Virus record (IMG/VR): IMGVR_UViG_2548876955_000010
DNA from: a virus
Taxonomy: Duplodnaviria; Heunggongvirae; Uroviricota; Caudoviricetes
Strand: one strand, 5' to 3'
Length of the DNA stretch: 16,048 nucleotides
The notes under the pieces are model-generated. The model was not told the DNA's origin. It saw nothing but the letters and a program-made list of their open reading frames with translations, and did no database searches. The number at the start of each line of letters is the position of its first letter. Position 1 is the first letter of the stretch. Positions 4,752 through 16,048 of the stretch are shown here, piece by piece. The translations under genes and the position numbers were made by a program.

Positions 4752-4809
4752 AAAAACGGCGGCAGAGCAGTCACGGAGTAAAACTGATACCGCCAAACGT
4801 CACCAGAAA
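4752..4809 (-). ncRNA. dicF: DicF small regulatory RNA (ftsZ-targeting sRNA of the dicB operon)
   Basis: Minus-strand sequence TTTCTGGTGACGTTTGGCGGTATCAGTTTTACTCCGTGACTGCTCTGCCGCCGTTTTT matches the DicF sequence as I recall it, including the GGCGG/CCGCC stem and 3' U-tract. Ends are approximate. Confidence 0.85.
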
Positions 4810-8197: not shown

Positions 8198-8620
8198 GTG
8201 GCAAAAGTTTTTACACAAGAAGAGCGGGAAAAAATTAAAGGGCAGGTTGTTGAACTCGTGCGCCGGAGTGGGCGTGAGACGTTACGGCAACTGGAAGTCA
8301 AGACAGGTGCGACAAGATATCTGATGAGCGTTCTCGCAAGAGAGCTGGTTGCCAGCGGCGATGTATACAACTCCGGCTACGGGTTATTCCCCTCTGAACA
8401 GGCGCGTAAGGACTGGCAAAACGCCCGCAAAAAACTCTCGAGGGCAAAGGTGAAGAAACCTGCTGTGGTTGATCCGGACCTTATCTGGTCATTACCTGAC
8501 GGAGAAATACGTCGCTACGACAGGCGTCATAATTTAATTTGTAGTGAGTGCCGTAAGAGCGAAGTTATGCAGCGCATATTATCGTTTTATCAGGGAAATG
8601 TTCGGTATTTATTTAAGTGA
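8198..8620 (+). CDS. Hypothetical protein (140 aa), last gene of the replication-module operon
   Basis: GTG start at 8198 preceded by AAGGGGGA RBS. Basic protein with no motif I can assign. Confidence 0.65.
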   Translation: MAKVFTQEEREKIKGQVVELVRRSGRETLRQLEVKTGATRYLMSVLARELVASGDVYNSGYGLFPSEQARKDWQNARKKLSRAKVKKPAVVDPDLIWSLPDGEIRRYDRRHNLICSECRKSEVMQRILSFYQGNVRYLFK

Positions 8621-8686
8621 CGAGATTAAAGTGCATTAGTTCAGATATAATTTGACATTTTCATGGCACAGTGTAGAGCTGGCGTG

Positions 8687-8716
8687 GTTGTCTGCTTTGT
8701 GGCAAAAGCAGACAAC
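8687..8716. repeat. Perfect 12-bp inverted repeat (GTTGTCTGCTTT / AAAGCAGACAAC) with 6-nt spacer; hairpin or protein-binding site
   Basis: Seen directly in sequence at 8687..8698 and 8705..8716. No flanking T-tract, so not a canonical intrinsic terminator. Sits between the replication module and the AT-rich cargo gene. Confidence 0.4.
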
Positions 8717-8898
8717 TCTAACGTAACGAGCGGGCGTCAGATATCTAAAAACTCATGGTGTGACTGTATGGGGGGTTAGAGTGGTGTCAGTCCAAATATT
8801 TCAAGAGTGAATGAAGTCATTATATAACAATGTTTTTTATTGCTATAGTCTCTGTTCAATGTCATTTTTTTGGTAAAAAGGATTGCTAAGGAATTTGT

Positions 8899-11496
8899 AT
8901 GACACCTATAGAAAAAATCGCAAATTGGTCTAAAAATAAACCTGTCTGGTGGCGGCACTCGCTACGTCTTGCATTAAATAATGGAACATTGGAGCAAGAC
9001 GATTTCAATGAAATATTTAAGTTAGCTTGCATGGAGCATGGTTTGTTGGAGAAAAACGCACATTTTTCTGAATGTGAAAAACCGATAGATTTTACTGGCT
9101 ATGCTGCTGAACTACATGAGGTATCATTAAAATCAATTTATGACGTAAAAGGCGTTGGGATACTGGCAGAAAACCAAAAGCTCAATTTTTCTAACAATGG
9201 CCTGTTTATCGTTTATGGTGATAATGGCGCCGGAAAATCAAGCTATGCAAGCATTTTAAAAAATGCATGCTTAACCCGAGGGGATAGCCCTGCAATTATT
9301 GGGAATGTCTTTTCCAAACTGAACTTACCTCCTCAAGCAAAACTCGCTGTTTCATGTAATGGTGTGGATGAAATTCATTCATGGAATCAACAAGTATCAA
9401 GCATTGAATCATTAAAGTCTATTCGTATATTTGACAGTTCATCTGCAAGCCATTACGTAAACAAAGAAGATGCTCTGGGTTTTAAACCTGTTGGACTAAA
9501 TTTACTTACTGAGTTGGTTCGTGCCATCGGAAGTGTTAATGCTTTTATTAATGAAGATACTATGCCCGGAAATGGTCTTACTACATTGATGAAGCTACAG
9601 TCAGGCAGCGTTACCGCTAGCTTTGCCAACAATCTTTCGGCAAATACTTTTGAAGGAGACGTCGATAATCATATTGCTACTGAAGCTGACTTACAACGAA
9701 TAGAAAGTTTGAGAAGAGAAATAAATCAATACAAGTCCCAGACGGCTGAAACGATAAAAAGTGCGTTGGAACAGAATAAGAGAACCCTTTCTCCACTTAA
9801 AAGTTTTTGTGATAGTTCAATTAAATTATTAGGTAATAATGCTGTTTTAGAACTAACAAAGCTACAGGCCGAACAAGAACGAACACAACATGTTTCTGAA
9901 GAACTACGTAAAGCTACATTACAAAATCTACCTTTAGATACAGTTGCAGGTCTTAGCTGGCAGAATTTATGGAAAGCAGCTAAAAACTTTATTGAACAGG
10001 AAACACGAAAGCAAAATTTCCCGATGCAAAAAGGAGAGCCTTGCCCGCTTTGTTTGCAAGAGATTGGCTTGGAAAGTGAAAGCAGATTGGCTGCATTAGC
10101 ACAGTATTTAAGTGACGAAACGGCGCAGTCAGCAAAAATCGCAAAGTACAATGTTGATAATGCATTAAAATTATTGTCCTCACATTCTCTCGAGCTAACC
10201 CCTTACATTGCAGCTATTGAATTTCTTAATGATAAGCACCCACCTCTGGGTGATGACGTCAAAATGATGTTTGCGCTCCTAGCGGAAAGAAAGGGAAATA
10301 TGTTATTAGGTAATGTTGAAGATACACATGCTGCATTGAATACTGAATGTGTAAATCAGTTTAATAAAATCATTGAGGGTCTCGATCAAAGTATACTCAG
10401 TGTTAATTCGGATGCGGATTTTTTGCTGTTAATAAAAAGGGAAGAGATGGAGTTAGCACGACTGGAAGATATGAAATATGTGTTGGATAATAAATCCAAT
10501 ATTATTTCTAACATCAGGCGTCTCAAAATTATTAAAAAATTTGAAAATTTGCAGTCACAATGCGGAACAACATCAATTTCAACTTTGTCTTCTCAGATAA
10601 GTCGTTCTGGTGTTGTTGAGCCGTTGATTTCAGCATTTAGCGAGGAACTGCGTAATTTTGGTTTTGAACGCTTCAAAGTGAAAGTTGATACCCGAAATCG
10701 TTCTGGTGAGCAGCAGTTTAAATTATCATTGGCTGATGAAGATGATGTGACTATTGCTACACTCGGAGTTGCAAGTGAGGGGGAACAACGATGTATTGCT
10801 ATTGCCAGTTTCCTTGCCGAAATGAAGGCTGATGCAAGAAAGTCGGCCGTTATATTTGATGATCCAGTTAACTCATTAAGTCATGAGTGGAGCAGCCGGG
10901 TTGCAAGACGCCTAGCCTTAGAATCGAAAAATAGACAGGTTATTGTCTTAACTCATAATATAGTTTTTTACAAACTACTGCTGGAAGTCGCTGAAGAGAT
11001 AAATGCAGAATGCTCCTGTATTGCTCTTGAACGCTCCCGTAAACTTGCAGGCTTAGTCAGGGAGTCAGCCCCTTGGGAAGCAATGACTACGCGAAGCAGA
11101 TACAAAGAACTTAAAGTTAAACTACAAGAGCTTAAACGATTAGATAAAAGGGATGAGACAACAGTTGCTGAGTTTCGTTTGGCATCTTGTCAGTTTTACG
11201 GATTTCTACGCGAGGCTTGGGAAAGGCTTGTTGAAGAGAAGCTTCTTAATAAAGTAGTGACTCGTTTTGAAAGAGGCATCTCTACTCAGCGATTAGCTCG
11301 ATTAAAAGATATCAATCAGGATGATCTTGATAAGATTGATCGTGGAATGTCTAAATGTAGCACTTATTTTAGAGGGCATGATAGCGCGCCTGCTGTCGGT
11401 GATCCTTATCCAATGATTGCTGAAATAGAGCAGGATTTAGATGCGATTAACATATTCTTAACCGAGCTTGAGAGCCCTTCCAGAAAAAGAAATTAA
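8899..11496 (+). CDS. Large P-loop ATPase (ABC/AAA_13-like) with coiled-coil CxxC insertion and distinct C-terminal domain; candidate RloC/PrrC-like abortive-infection / anticodon-nuclease protein
   Basis: 865-aa ORF with AAGGA RBS 6 nt before ATG 8899. Walker A GDNGAGKS (nt 9217..9240). Walker B-like AVIFDDP (nt 10846..10866) followed by VLTHN. More than 500 aa between the two motifs, K/E/Q-rich with CPLC (nt 10042..10053). C-terminal about 170 aa contain LREAWE and YFRGHDS. Gene and flanks are visibly AT-rich relative to neighbouring prophage genes. Function is inference. Confidence 0.85.
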   Translation: MTPIEKIANWSKNKPVWWRHSLRLALNNGTLEQDDFNEIFKLACMEHGLLEKNAHFSECEKPIDFTGYAAELHEVSLKSIYDVKGVGILAENQKLNFSNNGLFIVYGDNGAGKSSYASILKNACLTRGDSPAIIGNVFSKLNLPPQAKLAVSCNGVDEIHSWNQQVSSIESLKSIRIFDSSSASHYVNKEDALGFKPVGLNLLTELVRAIGSVNAFINEDTMPGNGLTTLMKLQSGSVTASFANNLSANTFEGDVDNHIATEADLQRIESLRREINQYKSQTAETIKSALEQNKRTLSPLKSFCDSSIKLLGNNAVLELTKLQAEQERTQHVSEELRKATLQNLPLDTVAGLSWQNLWKAAKNFIEQETRKQNFPMQKGEPCPLCLQEIGLESESRLAALAQYLSDETAQSAKIAKYNVDNALKLLSSHSLELTPYIAAIEFLNDKHPPLGDDVKMMFALLAERKGNMLLGNVEDTHAALNTECVNQFNKIIEGLDQSILSVNSDADFLLLIKREEMELARLEDMKYVLDNKSNIISNIRRLKIIKKFENLQSQCGTTSISTLSSQISRSGVVEPLISAFSEELRNFGFERFKVKVDTRNRSGEQQFKLSLADEDDVTIATLGVASEGEQRCIAIASFLAEMKADARKSAVIFDDPVNSLSHEWSSRVARRLALESKNRQVIVLTHNIVFYKLLLEVAEEINAECSCIALERSRKLAGLVRESAPWEAMTTRSRYKELKVKLQELKRLDKRDETTVAEFRLASCQFYGFLREAWERLVEEKLLNKVVTRFERGISTQRLARLKDINQDDLDKIDRGMSKCSTYFRGHDSAPAVGDPYPMIAEIEQDLDAINIFLTELESPSRKRN

Positions 11497-11512
11497 TCAT
11501 TAACTTCATAAT

Positions 11513-11540
11513 CAAACCCTGTGTTTGATGCGGGGTTTTG
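11513..11540 (+). terminator. Weak candidate intrinsic terminator downstream of the ATPase gene
   Basis: AAACCC…GGGGTTTT imperfect hairpin with a 12-nt loop and short T-run. Marginal stability. Confidence 0.3.
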
Positions 11541-11811
11541 ACTTTATGTAAGTATTCTAGGAAATCGCTCCATTACCTTTTGAAGTCCCTTGCAACCTAG
11601 CTAACACAACTTCCGCTCCTCGCTCAAAGCGGACTGGAAGGTTAGCTTGCGTCGGACTTTGCGTATTAAAAGAAGTGCTGGTGGTGACTGGTGGTTGAGC
11701 CCCATTTCCACAGAAAAATCAGAGAAACCATACCCAATAGTTGTATTGAATCACGGACGAGACAGCCTCATATTTATCAGGGCTGGTGTACGTCCAATAC
11801 AGGAGGTTGTG

Positions 11812-11901
11812 GTGCTGGTTCTCAAATGTGCGCTGGCTATTACGGCTGTAATGGCGATTTATTGTCTTGCTATTGTTCTTATGGATCGCCTTTCTGACTG
11901 A
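11812..11901 (+). CDS. Candidate 29-aa hydrophobic small peptide (type I toxin-like or leader peptide)
   Basis: Consensus SD AGGAGG (11801..11806) 5 nt before GTG 11812. Translation (M)LVLKCALAITAVMAIYCLAIVLMDRLSD is a single TM-like helix. Lies about 210 nt upstream of mok/hok. Not matched to a known family from memory. Confidence 0.35.
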   Translation: MLVLKCALAITAVMAIYCLAIVLMDRLSD

Positions 11902-12055
11902 TTTCATATTGGCGAGGTAAAGGTAGTTAAGTAGAATGGCTGCGGGTGCTTGAGGCTATCTGCCTCGGGCATGAACACCAAAGGCAGATAGAGAAAAGCC
12001 CCAGTTAACATTACGCGTCCTGCAAGACGCTTAATATTAATCTGAGGCCAATTTC

Positions 12056-12268
12056 ATGCTAGACACATGTAGGTTAGCCTCTTACGTGCCGGAAGGCAAG
12101 GAGAAGCAGGCTATGAAGCAGCAAAAGGCGATGTTAATCGCCCTGATCGTCATCTGTTTAACCGTCATAGTGACGGCACTGGTAACGAGGAAAGACCTCT
12201 GCGAGGTACGAATCCGAACCGGCCAGACGGAGGTCGCTGTCTTCACAGCTTACGAACCTGAGGAGTAA
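12056..12268 (+). CDS. Mok-like overlapping frame (N-terminally extended Hok, MokC-type)
   Basis: In-frame upstream ATG at 12056 gives MLDTCRLASYVPEGKEKQA + Hok; this resembles the MokC/HokC arrangement. Confidence 0.45.
   Translation: MLDTCRLASYVPEGKEKQAMKQQKAMLIALIVICLTVIVTALVTRKDLCEVRIRTGQTEVAVFTAYEPEE
12113..12268 (+). CDS. hok: Hok/Gef-family type I toxin (51 aa membrane peptide)
   Basis: MKQQKAMLIALIVICLTVIVTALVTRKDLCEVRIRTGQTEVAVFTAYEPEE carries the Hok/Gef signature (LIVIC…LVTRKDLCEV…GQTEVA…AYE). Which hok paralogue it is cannot be resolved. Confidence 0.88.
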   Translation: MKQQKAMLIALIVICLTVIVTALVTRKDLCEVRIRTGQTEVAVFTAYEPEE

Positions 12269-12336
12269 GAGACCCGGCGAGGGAGAAATCCCTCGCCACC
12301 TCTGATGTGGCAGGCATCCTCAACGCACCCGCACTT

Positions 12337-12358
12337 AACCCGCTTCGGCGGGTTTTTG
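12337..12358 (+). terminator. Rho-independent terminator at the 3' end of the hok mRNA
   Basis: AACCCGC-TTCG-GCGGGTT hairpin followed by TTTTTGTTTTT. Confidence 0.7.
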
Positions 12359-12484
12359 TTTTTATTTTCAACGCGTTTGAAGTTCTGGACGGTGCCGGAA
12401 TAGAATCAAAAATACTTAAGTAGCGCGCAGGGATAAGAGGGATGGTCCCTTAAAGGGGAGAGCTAATTATCCGGAAGGATTCTG

Positions 12485-12736
12485 ATGATGAACATCGAAG
12501 AACTGCGTAAAATTTTTTGTGAAGATGGCCTCTATGCTGTGTGCGTTGAAAATGGAAATCTTGTTAGTCATTACCGCATTATGTGTTTGCGAAAGAATGG
12601 GGCTGCGTTAATTAATTTTGTGGATGGTCGAGTGACAGACGGATTTATCTTGCGCGAAGGTGAGTTTGTCACTTCATTACAGGCACTGAAAGAGATCGGA
12701 ATAAAAGCAGGCTTTTCAGCTTTTGCAGAAGAATAA
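12485..12736 (+). CDS. rem: Rem-like hypothetical protein (83 aa)
   Basis: 83-aa ORF with AAGGA RBS. Position between hok and ydfU-like and length match Qin rem; the sequence itself is not independently recognised. Confidence 0.65.
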   Translation: MMNIEELRKIFCEDGLYAVCVENGNLVSHYRIMCLRKNGAALINFVDGRVTDGFILREGEFVTSLQALKEIGIKAGFSAFAEE

Positions 12737-15532: not shown

Positions 15533-15832
15533 AAAAATTCCTTAATACTGATAACTTGGCGCACTATACACACGTTCCTGAAGAAAGCTATAGTTTTTTG
15601 ATGGGGTTGAAGATGGCTGGATGTCTAAAATAAACATTGCTTCATATGTTCAACTATGCGTTAATGATTGCGTCGGTTTGAAGAACAGACGATATACGAA
15701 GTAGTTTACTAAAGCAGTTCTCATTTCAGGTGTTATTCACTTATTCCTTCTTTGAGTCTCTCCAATTAAGTACGAAGTCGTTTCTGTTATGCAAACCATT
15801 TATGCCGAAAGGCTCAAGTTAAGGAATGTAGA

Positions 15833-16048
15833 ATGTCAAATAAAATGACTGGTTTAGTAAAATGGTTTAACGCTGATAAAGGTTTCGGCTTTATTTCTCC
15901 TGTTGATGGTAGTAAAGATGTGTTTGTGCATTTTTCTGCGATTCAGAATGATAATTATCGAACCTTATTTGAAGGTCAAAAGGTTACCTTCTCTATAGAG
16001 AGTGGTGCTAAAGGTCCTGCAGCAGCAAATGTCATCATTACTGATTAA
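15833..16048 (+). CDS. cspB: Cold-shock protein CspB-like (71 aa)
   Basis: [71 protein letters not shown] with RNP1-like KGFGFI and RNP2-like VFVHF motifs. Long 5' leader (about 300 nt) typical of csp genes. Stop TAA at 16046..16048. Confidence 0.9.

Follow-up and report, generated by a model that had tools for sequence, protein, structure and literature searches.

A Qin-like lambdoid prophage of Escherichia coli with an apparently complete and functional hok/mok/sok type I toxin-antitoxin cassette

The region from ~11925 to 12363 of the DNA analyzed here (the window, 16,048 nucleotides at its full length) very probably contains a hok/mok/sok type I cassette that belongs to the hokD/hokW subfamily and is complete and apparently functional, a self-contained transcription unit carried by a Qin-like lambdoid prophage; we put the probability of this reading at roughly 0.85. 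An initial annotation had picked out the region as a toxin locus for which an antisense Sok RNA was to be expected, but it had not located that RNA and had left it in doubt whether the antitoxin was intact. As far as sequence can settle the matter, the Sok antitoxin gene looks intact. The cassette is an ordinary one: of 5426 complete E. coli genomes, 4269 contain an intact leader of the window type (median two copies, maximum ten), so that the locus has to be regarded as already known and very common.

A RefSeq E. coli chromosome record is 100% identical to the window over positions 11900-12400, beside rspB, and the window has the organization of a Qin-like lambdoid prophage. The gene order runs from integrase through excisionase, exonuclease, ydfD, dicB, DicF (an Rfam match at 4757-4808 of the window) and ydfA to a repressor/Cro pair, a YdaT-like gene, a DUF977 gene and a gene for an 865-aa AAA ATPase, and continues with hokD, rem, ydfU, the Q antiterminator gene and cspF/cspB. 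The features of the toxin gene are as follows.

12056..12268, plus strand: mok (70 aa), which reads in the hok frame and ends at a common stop codon
12113..12268, plus strand: hok toxin gene, 51 aa, starting at the internal ATG at 12113 of the mok frame
12044..12047, plus strand: mok Shine-Dalgarno sequence GAGG, 8 nt before the mok ATG, by direct sequence reading
12098..12103, plus strand: hok Shine-Dalgarno sequence AAGGAG, by direct reading, overlapping the -35 hexamer of sok on the opposite strand
12251..12254, plus strand: TACG motif at Tyr47 of Hok, a TadA A-to-I editing site (Tyr to Cys), by direct reading

The identification of the region as a mok/hok type I toxin locus was borne out by the Pfam assignment of the toxin, by the in-frame mok and by an Rfam match to the leader. 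Hok belongs to Pfam family PF01848 HOK_GEF (81.6 bits, cut-off 22) and carries C15, T17, R26, L29, E31, E40 and A42, the residues that are invariant in six aligned Hok proteins, and RefSeq annotates the gene as hokD. The 51-aa Hok with its in-frame Mok-type N-terminal extension, as initially described, was confirmed, the two frames being 12113-12268 and 12056-12268. The mok Shine-Dalgarno sequence of plasmid R1 is likewise GAGG, at the position equivalent to 12044..12047 (PMC9841398), and the hok Shine-Dalgarno sequence AAGGAG is retained in nearly all aligned loci. Alignment with hokD showed that the coding DNA is identical to that of K-12 hokD from 12099 on; K-12 HokD, which is the same protein, is listed as a toxic control (10.1101/2025.08.07.668861), and Hok may be toxic here as well. 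The sequence of the TACG editing site is also the same as in K-12, where editing of hokD at the Tyr of this motif has been reported (PMC5630033).

The hok transcript and the elements expected to control its folding lie on the same strand, and the leader and 3' elements were mapped from the R1 map of Le Rhun et al. (PMC9841398).

11909..11937, plus strand: hok promoter, with -35 TTGGCG at 11909-11914, a 17-nt spacer and -10 TAGAAT at 11932-11937
11944..12362, plus strand: full-length mok-hok mRNA, ~419 nt
11944..11955, plus strand: tac (translational activator), GGGUGCUUGAGG, pairing with 12318-12330 at a mean probability of 0.995 in the full-length RNA
11956..11991, plus strand: 10-bp hairpin, the conserved apical stem of the 5' domain of the hok mRNA
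11996..12002, plus strand: ucb or anti-Shine-Dalgarno box, AAGCCCC, assigned by analogy with R1 positions 70-74 (PMC9841398)
12276..12297, plus strand: 9-bp hairpin, GGCGAGGGA-GAAA-UCCCUCGCC, present in every predicted fold
12318..12330, plus strand: fbi (fold-back inhibition) element, CCUCAACGCACCC, pairing with 11944-11955 over 12 bp with a single bulge, probability 0.995
12337..12362, plus strand: hok intrinsic terminator, a 7-bp G+C-rich stem at 12337-12354 followed by the T run TTTGTTTTT

Transcription is predicted to start at the G at 11944, from a plus-strand promoter that matches 9 of 12 consensus positions in a consensus scan and is described as weak. Its -10 element lines up with TATAAT of hokC and TAGAAT of 933W, and the -35 region is variable among relatives. 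At the other end of the transcript, a terminator scan recovered the strong 3' terminator that had been noted before, as the stem at 12337-12354 plus the T run. The minimum free energy (MFE) of the full-length hok mRNA is -177.5 kcal/mol (z = -6.9).

The perfect 10-bp hairpin that had been singled out in the leader, about 65 nt upstream of mok, does lie at 11956..11991. Its arms, CTATCTGCCT (11956-11965) and AGGCAGATAG (11982-11991), are fully complementary and enclose a 16-nt loop, and the distance from the end of the hairpin to the mok ATG at 12056 is 65 nt. It is more than a chance repeat: only nine inverted repeats with a 9-nt seed and arms no more than 60 nt apart occur in the 16-kb window, this one extends to 21-nt arms (11945-11965 and 11982-12002), and the 59-nt 5' domain folds at -29.5 kcal/mol (z = -5.4), a value equaled by 0 of 200 shuffled sequences. 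Loci from Escherichia, Kluyvera, Photorhabdus, Pantoea and Citrobacter retain the stem and show compensatory changes in it, the A11958-U11989 pair being replaced by G-C among close relatives, and the pairing probability of the stem is 0.94-0.995 in all transcript forms tested. It sits between tac and ucb and corresponds to the first stem of the Rfam RF01794 model. The hairpin is thus the standard, conserved first stem of the hok mRNA leader and not an oddity of this locus.

Control by fold-back of the 5' and 3' ends, which had been expected from what is established for the hok family, was borne out in silico when the full hok transcript was folded. In partition-function calculations on the full-length RNA, ucb pairs with the mok Shine-Dalgarno region at 12042-12048 with a probability of 0.99 and the pairing of tac with ucb has a probability of 0; the long-range tac/fbi pairing and the covering of the mok Shine-Dalgarno sequence by ucb are also present in the MFE fold. 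The 12276..12297 hairpin is presumed, from its likeness to the last stem-loop of R1 Tr-hok (PMC9841398), to be the stem that would protect the 3' end of the processed (truncated) hok mRNA; relatives have G.U or G-C in place of its A12280/U12293 pair. For truncated transcripts the partner of the 5' end was not consistent between MFE folds, and partition-function probabilities were used instead. These still vary with the assumed 3' end: tac-ucb pairing reaches 0.64-0.70 for 3' ends at 12305-12310 and is only a minority state, at 0.23-0.31, for 3' ends at 12298-12302. The tac-ucb helix was recovered by RNAalifold, with one compensatory pair. Overall, these models make an R1-type switch from tac/fbi to tac/ucb pairing plausible here. 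An alternative ucb, AGCCUCUUACGUGCC at 12077-12091, was considered and dropped, as the ucb/anti-Shine-Dalgarno box of R1 is at nt 70-74, directly after the 5' hairpin (PMC9841398); the placement at 11996-12002 follows from this equivalent position together with the RNAalifold helix.

The leader also matches Rfam family RF01794, named "sok antitoxin," at 11944-12118 on the plus strand (model positions 1-157, 119.1 bits, gathering score 59). Taken at face value, this label would make the plus-strand RNA at 11944-12118 the antitoxin itself, a reading that has the 119-bit match in its favor and that we consider hardly credible, as a plus-strand RNA cannot be antisense to mok. It was rejected when the family was examined in K-12, where RF01794 matches the coding strand of hokC and hokB, opposite the curated sokC and sokB genes, over a span of ~153 nt from the 5' end of the hok mRNA to the hok start codon. 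From this strand assignment it follows that the model describes the leader of the hok mRNA, which contains the complement of Sok.

An antisense Sok gene, as expected for a hok family locus, could be placed on the minus strand, at a position equivalent to those of the annotated sokC, sokB and sokW genes.

11988..12064, minus strand: Sok antisense RNA, starting at 12064 and ending at 11994 if it resembles sokW or at 11988 if it resembles sokC and sokB
11997..12049, minus strand: Sok terminator hairpin, followed by UUUUCUCUAU
12071..12099, minus strand: sok promoter, with -35 TTGCCT at 12099-12094, a 17-nt spacer and -10 TAACCT at 12076-12071

For the placement, the window was aligned with K-12 loci in which sok genes are curated and with a hok/sok copy from a plasmid that does not differ from that of R1. 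In this alignment the annotated sokC and sokB of K-12 map to 11988-12064 on the minus strand. The annotated 71-nt sokW of phages 933W and VT2-Sakai, which have a much closer relative of the locus, maps to 11994-12064 on the same strand; comparison with hokC/sokC, which had been suggested at the outset, thus identified a conserved sok position and favors an intact Sok. The predicted start site lies 7 nt past the -10 hexamer (six intervening bases), and the 5' tail of Sok (12064-12050) is complementary to the mok start region. The RNA folds at -31.5 kcal/mol (z = -6.4). Its terminator has an 18-nt G+C-rich extension, GCGUC-loop-GACGC, that is absent from sokC and sokB, so the length of Sok would be ~71-77 nt and not ~60. 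An expectation that did not hold was that an antisense RNA of ~60 nt would be found opposite 12040..12110: positions 12065-12099 are instead occupied by the sok promoter, and the transcript would run leftward from 12064. The only base of Sok that is unique to the window is at 12035 (C to T), a change that preserves the structure of the terminator stem by converting a G.U pair to A-U.

That no convincing minus-strand promoter could be made out by eye was a fair remark, since the sok promoter agrees with the consensus at only 7 of 12 positions and a generic promoter and terminator scan of the minus strand called neither it nor the sok terminator; the placement of sok therefore rests on homology and conservation and not on consensus matching. 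These scan results, and the fact that RefSeq annotates no RNA gene there, could be taken to mean that the antitoxin is defective, with a minus-strand promoter too weak to act or no Sok at all, so that hok would be restrained only by the fold-back of its mRNA. We think this very improbable. The promoter has the same two hexamers as sokW of 933W and VT2-Sakai and differs from it at a single position, spacer base 12092, and sokW is functional: Takada et al. reported its expression from its own promoter, a northern blot signal and protection against HokW (PMC8621323), and mutation of its -10 element abolished antitoxin activity (PMC8621323). The sok promoter of R1, TTGCGC/TATCCT, likewise matches the consensus at only 8 of 12 positions at best. 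The missing annotation is a pipeline effect, given that only the curated record of K-12 has annotations for sokC and sokB. Expression of Sok, its instability and its neutralization of hok, which have been demonstrated for the homologue sokW (PMC8621323), would by analogy be expected of an intact Sok here as well.

Conservation bears on the same question. Related loci were sought in genome contigs with a single Hok protein as the query, and per-site diversity was determined over 83 close loci, comprising 80 IMG/VR contigs, 933W, a Rac-type phage and the window itself.

sok promoter: diversity 0.02 per site
Sok body: diversity 0.02 per site
tac: diversity 0.02 per site
hok coding sequence: diversity 0.01 per site
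Sok 5' tail: diversity 0.17 per site
hok promoter region: diversity 0.29 per site

Together with ucb, the tac element, the sok promoter, the Sok body and the hok coding sequence all fall at 0.01-0.02 per site, and the sok promoter region has the lowest diversity of the noncoding parts, which argues further against a defective antitoxin. The T1, A2 and T6 positions of the sok -10 hexamer and the TTG of the -35 hexamer are present, from Escherichia to Photorhabdus, in almost all loci other than those of the hokC group, which has a 1-nt deletion in the sok -10. In the Sok terminator stem, five of the 12 consensus pairs show compensatory changes. On the Sok strand, 91.5% of alignment cells form pairs, compared with no more than 62% in slid controls, and double changes were counted in 29 cells, compared with 10.3 after shuffling. 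Read on the sense strand, this helix is paired in only 68% of cells, the 66 cells that form G.U pairs in the Sok orientation becoming A/C mismatches in the mRNA. This strand-specific covariation suggests that the fold of the antisense RNA is under selection, and the conservation as a whole supports a functional antitoxin gene.

If the cassette works as in plasmid R1 and in hokW-sokW, the full-length hok mRNA would be stable but translationally silent until slow 3' trimming to the 12276-12297 hairpin removed fbi; tac would then pair with ucb and free the mok ribosome-binding site. Sok, a constitutive product on this model, would pair with the processed hok mRNA for as long as it was made, and the duplex would be destroyed. 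Should transcription of the locus stop, through prophage induction, DNA damage or loss of the element, the short-lived Sok would decay first, mok would be translated, hok would be translated by coupling, and Hok would depolarize the inner membrane. Each of these steps is ascribed to the present allele by homology. The most likely role, again by analogy with hokW-sokW, would be to aid lysis and phage release after induction, to stabilize the prophage segment, or both; the physiological role is the least certain step of the explanation, and prophage-segment stabilization or abortive infection are possible roles. In the hokW-sokW system, mitomycin C causes SokW to disappear in a RecA-dependent manner and HokW to appear in the inner membrane (PMC8621323), and phage yield is halved when the locus is absent (PMC8621323). 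Because 5 of the 15 positions in the 5' tail of Sok are different in SokW, homology is the only ground for carrying the hokW results over to the window.

A structurally intact cassette could nevertheless be physiologically silent, with Sok and hok mRNA both made and Hok not released in meaningful amounts, so that the locus would be hitchhiking phage cargo. Such silence has been reported for the native chromosomal hokA, hokB and hokC loci, and the native chromosomal hok loci tested earlier did not give postsegregational killing (summarized in 10.1101/2025.08.07.668861), which means that structural integrity is no proof of a phenotype; the poor conservation of the hok -35 region, with a diversity of 0.29 per site across the promoter, points the same way. 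Set against this are the measurable phenotype of the close homologue hokW-sokW on prophage induction (PMC8621323), the strong conservation of tac, ucb, the sok promoter, the Sok body and the hok coding sequence in the 83 loci, and the prevalence of the intact leader among E. coli genomes, which is hard to square with neutral decay. We therefore regard a silent cassette as unlikely, though less so than a defective antitoxin, and retain the reading of a complete and apparently functional one.

The cassette behaves like a separate module. What is common to 80 related IMG/VR loci extends over ~11925-12363: the points at which homology breaks off form a left cluster at 11924/11925 and a right cluster at 12355-12363 (35 of the 80 loci), and these clusters define a minimal common unit that runs from the -10 region to the terminator. 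Between the ATPase gene and hok, an open reading frame at 11647-11901 would encode 84 aa from a TTG start, with a hydrophobic C terminus; it has no Pfam match and no RefSeq annotation, homology breakpoints are scattered through it, and it was treated as noncoding. The observation that hok adjoins a candidate defense gene stands, the upstream 865-aa ATPase matching the candidate defense family PADLOC PDC-S06 over its full length with 1123 bits. The K-12-type relBEF arrangement, in which relE directly precedes a leaderless hokD, was not found here, and it is the AAA ATPase that lies upstream.

The slot just upstream of the cassette is highly variable. In K-12 it contains relBE, ydfV and flxA, and more than 40 different ORF architectures were seen in the 72 IMG/VR contigs with enough upstream sequence. 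In 70 loci an ORF of 100 aa or more was available, and a tally of the one closest to hok in each of them, on a sample that was not dereplicated and had no control, gave 33 distinct protein clusters; 14 of these, covering 22 loci, match PADLOC families, namely Septu PtuA/PtuB, Kiwa KwaB, Old, dCTP deaminase, PD-Lambda-2_C, PDC-S06, PDC-S15, PDC-S39, PDC-M68B, an NsnA-like protein, a kinase fragment and two weak matches. The commonest cargo is of a nondefense kind: QueH (15 loci), a 183-aa protein of unknown function (9 loci) and a DUF551 protein (6 loci). The tally supports variability of the slot and frequent defense content; it is no evidence of statistical enrichment over other phage cargo sites, nor does it tie hok/sok functionally to the cargo. 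Given the makeup of the sample and a recent survey in which hok was not generally enriched near defense systems (10.1101/2025.08.07.668861), we treat the defense-rich slot as a lead and not as a finding. A literature search of limited coverage, and thus weak evidence, returned no paper on a hok-adjacent hotspot in lambdoid prophages. It is possible, although we hold the idea only tentatively and rate it below even odds, that the cassette is the conserved right-hand anchor of a cargo/defense hotspot in Qin- and Rac-like prophages, located between the replication module (DnaC-like, DUF1627, DUF977) and hok-rem-ydfU-Q, where cargo would be swapped through recombination in the flanking homology that the cassette provides and the toxin-antitoxin system may help to retain the cargo. 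On such a hypothesis, the relBE-hokD arrangement of K-12 would be a cargo swap that clipped the hok leader. The position of the cassette at the edge of a defense-rich variable slot is the only mildly novel angle of the locus, and the slot could serve as a search anchor for new defense genes in lambdoid prophages.

hok/sok is among the best-studied type I toxin-antitoxin families, the nearest relative of the present locus, hokW-sokW, is annotated and experimentally tested, and the locus has little discovery value; its practical value lies in annotation. In the RefSeq record only the hokD coding sequence is annotated at the locus, with nothing under the leader and with mok and Sok absent, and RefSeq uses the one name hokD for both the intact form and the truncated form of K-12. 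The Rfam "sok" family actually marks the sense-strand hok leader. With annotation in this state, annotation-based calls of intactness would mislead. Our literature search, again of limited coverage, found no relevant use of the name "sokD."

Among known systems, the hokD (relF) locus of the K-12 Qin prophage shares the prophage gene order and an integrase adjoining rspB, and its DNA is identical from 12099 to at least 12400, a stretch that takes in the hok Shine-Dalgarno sequence, the coding sequence, the 3' untranslated region with fbi, the terminator and the start of the rem flank. Upstream of 12099, however, the K-12 sequence is replaced by relBE, the junction being with the 3' end of relE, whereas the window is unrearranged. 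As a consequence of this replacement, K-12 hokD is without its own promoter, tac, the 5' hairpin, ucb, the mok start, Sok and the sok -10 hexamer, and an Rfam search of K-12 hokD found no hok leader. Pedersen and Gerdes, writing in 1999, are said to have described hokD as inactivated by a major rearrangement. The K-12-type relE-hokD junction is present in 1173 of the 5426 complete E. coli genomes.

The hok/sok (parB) locus of plasmid R1 has the same elements in the same order, that is, tac, the 5' hairpin, ucb, the mok Shine-Dalgarno sequence, the Sok target, a sok promoter overlapping the hok Shine-Dalgarno sequence, the 3' protective hairpin and fbi, and it shares the predicted switch from tac/fbi to tac/ucb. 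R1 Hok, however, is only 37% identical, the mok and hok frames of R1 differ, the 64-nt Sok of R1 has a different hairpin, and the loop of the R1 5' hairpin is longer; moreover, the R1 cassette is plasmid-borne and acts in postsegregational killing. The chromosomal hokC/mokC/sokC (gef) locus of E. coli is closer in its protein, with 82% identity between the Hok sequences, and has mok in frame and an RF01794 leader of 118 bits, but the 18-nt hairpin extension is absent from its sokC, the sokC -10 region (ACTCTA) has lost 1 nt, and in K-12 the locus is flanked by IS186. The mokW/hokW/sokW cassette of 933W and VT2-Sakai (Sp5) is 92.7% identical in DNA over 11916-12340 and is likewise carried by a lambdoid prophage, with an in-frame mok, a 51-aa Hok, a 71-nt Sok and the 18-nt extended terminator hairpin. 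HokW is 92% identical to the Hok described here, four C-terminal residues being different (TAYEPEE here, VDYESEK in HokW), and the 3' terminators of the two cassettes also differ; the 933W cassette lies near one end of the genome map, beside a YgiW-like gene, whereas that of the window lies between the cargo slot and rem-ydfU-Q.

The following features of the cassette bear on where the Sok antitoxin RNA lies and on how it varies:

11944-12118, plus strand, match to Rfam RF01794, "sok antitoxin (CssrC)"
12050-12064, minus strand, 5' tail of Sok, complementary to the mok start region

The Rfam match lies on the same strand as the hok mRNA, and the two K-12 loci compared are also matched by RF01794 (at 502-654 in L003 and at 567-718 in L004). 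In K-12, the matched strand is the one opposite the curated sokC and sokB genes. RF01794 is therefore a model of the sense-strand hok mRNA leader and not of the Sok RNA, and automated pipelines that rely on this family would assign "sok" to the wrong strand.

Among the 83 close loci (80 IMG/VR contigs, 933W, a Rac-type phage, and the window), no part of the transcribed cassette varies as much as the 5' tail, whose per-site diversity is 0.17; the Sok body and promoter are at 0.02. The tail has two main haplotypes: GTCTAGCATGAAATT is the window's own and occurs at 53 loci, and GTTCAGCATGGATTG, the SokW type, occurs at 20. Since a single genome can carry up to 10 copies of the cassette, variation in the tail might limit cross-talk among co-resident copies. 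Position 12035 is T in the window only and C in all 69 of the other unique related sequences; in the Sok terminator stem the T turns a G.U pair into A-U, and in the mRNA hairpin it gives A-U in place of an A/C mismatch.

Upstream of the cassette lies a region that differs from one prophage to the next:

about 8620 to 11925, variable slot
8899-11496, plus strand, AAA ATPase of 865 aa, upstream of hok and within the slot; full-length match to PADLOC PDC-S06 (1123 bits)
11647-11901, plus strand, ORF of 84 aa that lacks annotation, starts with TTG, and has a hydrophobic segment at its C terminus; located downstream of the ATPase and upstream of the hok promoter

PDC-S06, the family matched by the ATPase, is listed by PADLOC as a candidate defence family, and the counterpart of the slot is hypervariable among related prophages. 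The nearest gene upstream of hok was PADLOC positive in 22 of 70 IMG/VR loci, with Septu, Kiwa, Old, dCTP deaminase, PD-Lambda-2, and several PDC families represented at this position; other occupants in related loci were QueH, DUF551, and unknown proteins. The 84-aa ORF is probably noncoding: a Pfam search with it gave no match, and homology breakpoints in related loci are spread throughout it.

Elsewhere, the window contains the following elements:

4757-4808, minus strand, DicF antisense small RNA (full-length Rfam match, 72.5 bits)
12377-12406, plus strand, promoter-like site (TTGAAG, 18 nt, TAGAAT) directly past the hok terminator
15672-16048, plus strand, cspA-type thermoregulator 5' UTR (RF01766, 157.7 bits; match interrupted by the window end)
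15833-16048, plus strand, cold-shock protein ORF downstream of this 5' UTR

The rem gene (12485-12736) follows the promoter-like site at a distance of about 80 nt. In the related RefSeq record, which is identical to the window across hok, cspB comes after the Q antiterminator, and the spacing differs from that of the window by about 260 bp. As in Qin, dicB and ydfD adjoin DicF.

Comparison with K-12 hokD draws on two further positions:

12099, breakpoint of the K-12 type relE-hokD junction, shared by L002, L094, and L115
12251-12254, plus strand, TACG motif whose TAC codon encodes Hok Tyr47

The junction, which removes the entire hok leader together with Sok, is present in 1,173 of 5,426 complete E. 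coli genomes. L115, a contig from Kluyvera sp., carries it too, so the range of the rearranged hokD form extends beyond Escherichia. Near-identical hokD/hokW sequences on a 275-bp contig of Acinetobacter idrijaensis (L105) and a 431-bp contig of Xanthomonas pisi (L110), both tiny contigs of nonenterobacterial assemblies, appear to be contamination from E. coli or phage. In K-12, relBE occupies the slot where the window has the PDC-S06 ATPase. The TACG site of K-12 hokD is reported to undergo A-to-I editing by TadA, which recodes Tyr to Cys (PMC5630033), and the sequence of this Tyr47 editing site is the same in K-12 hokD and in the window.
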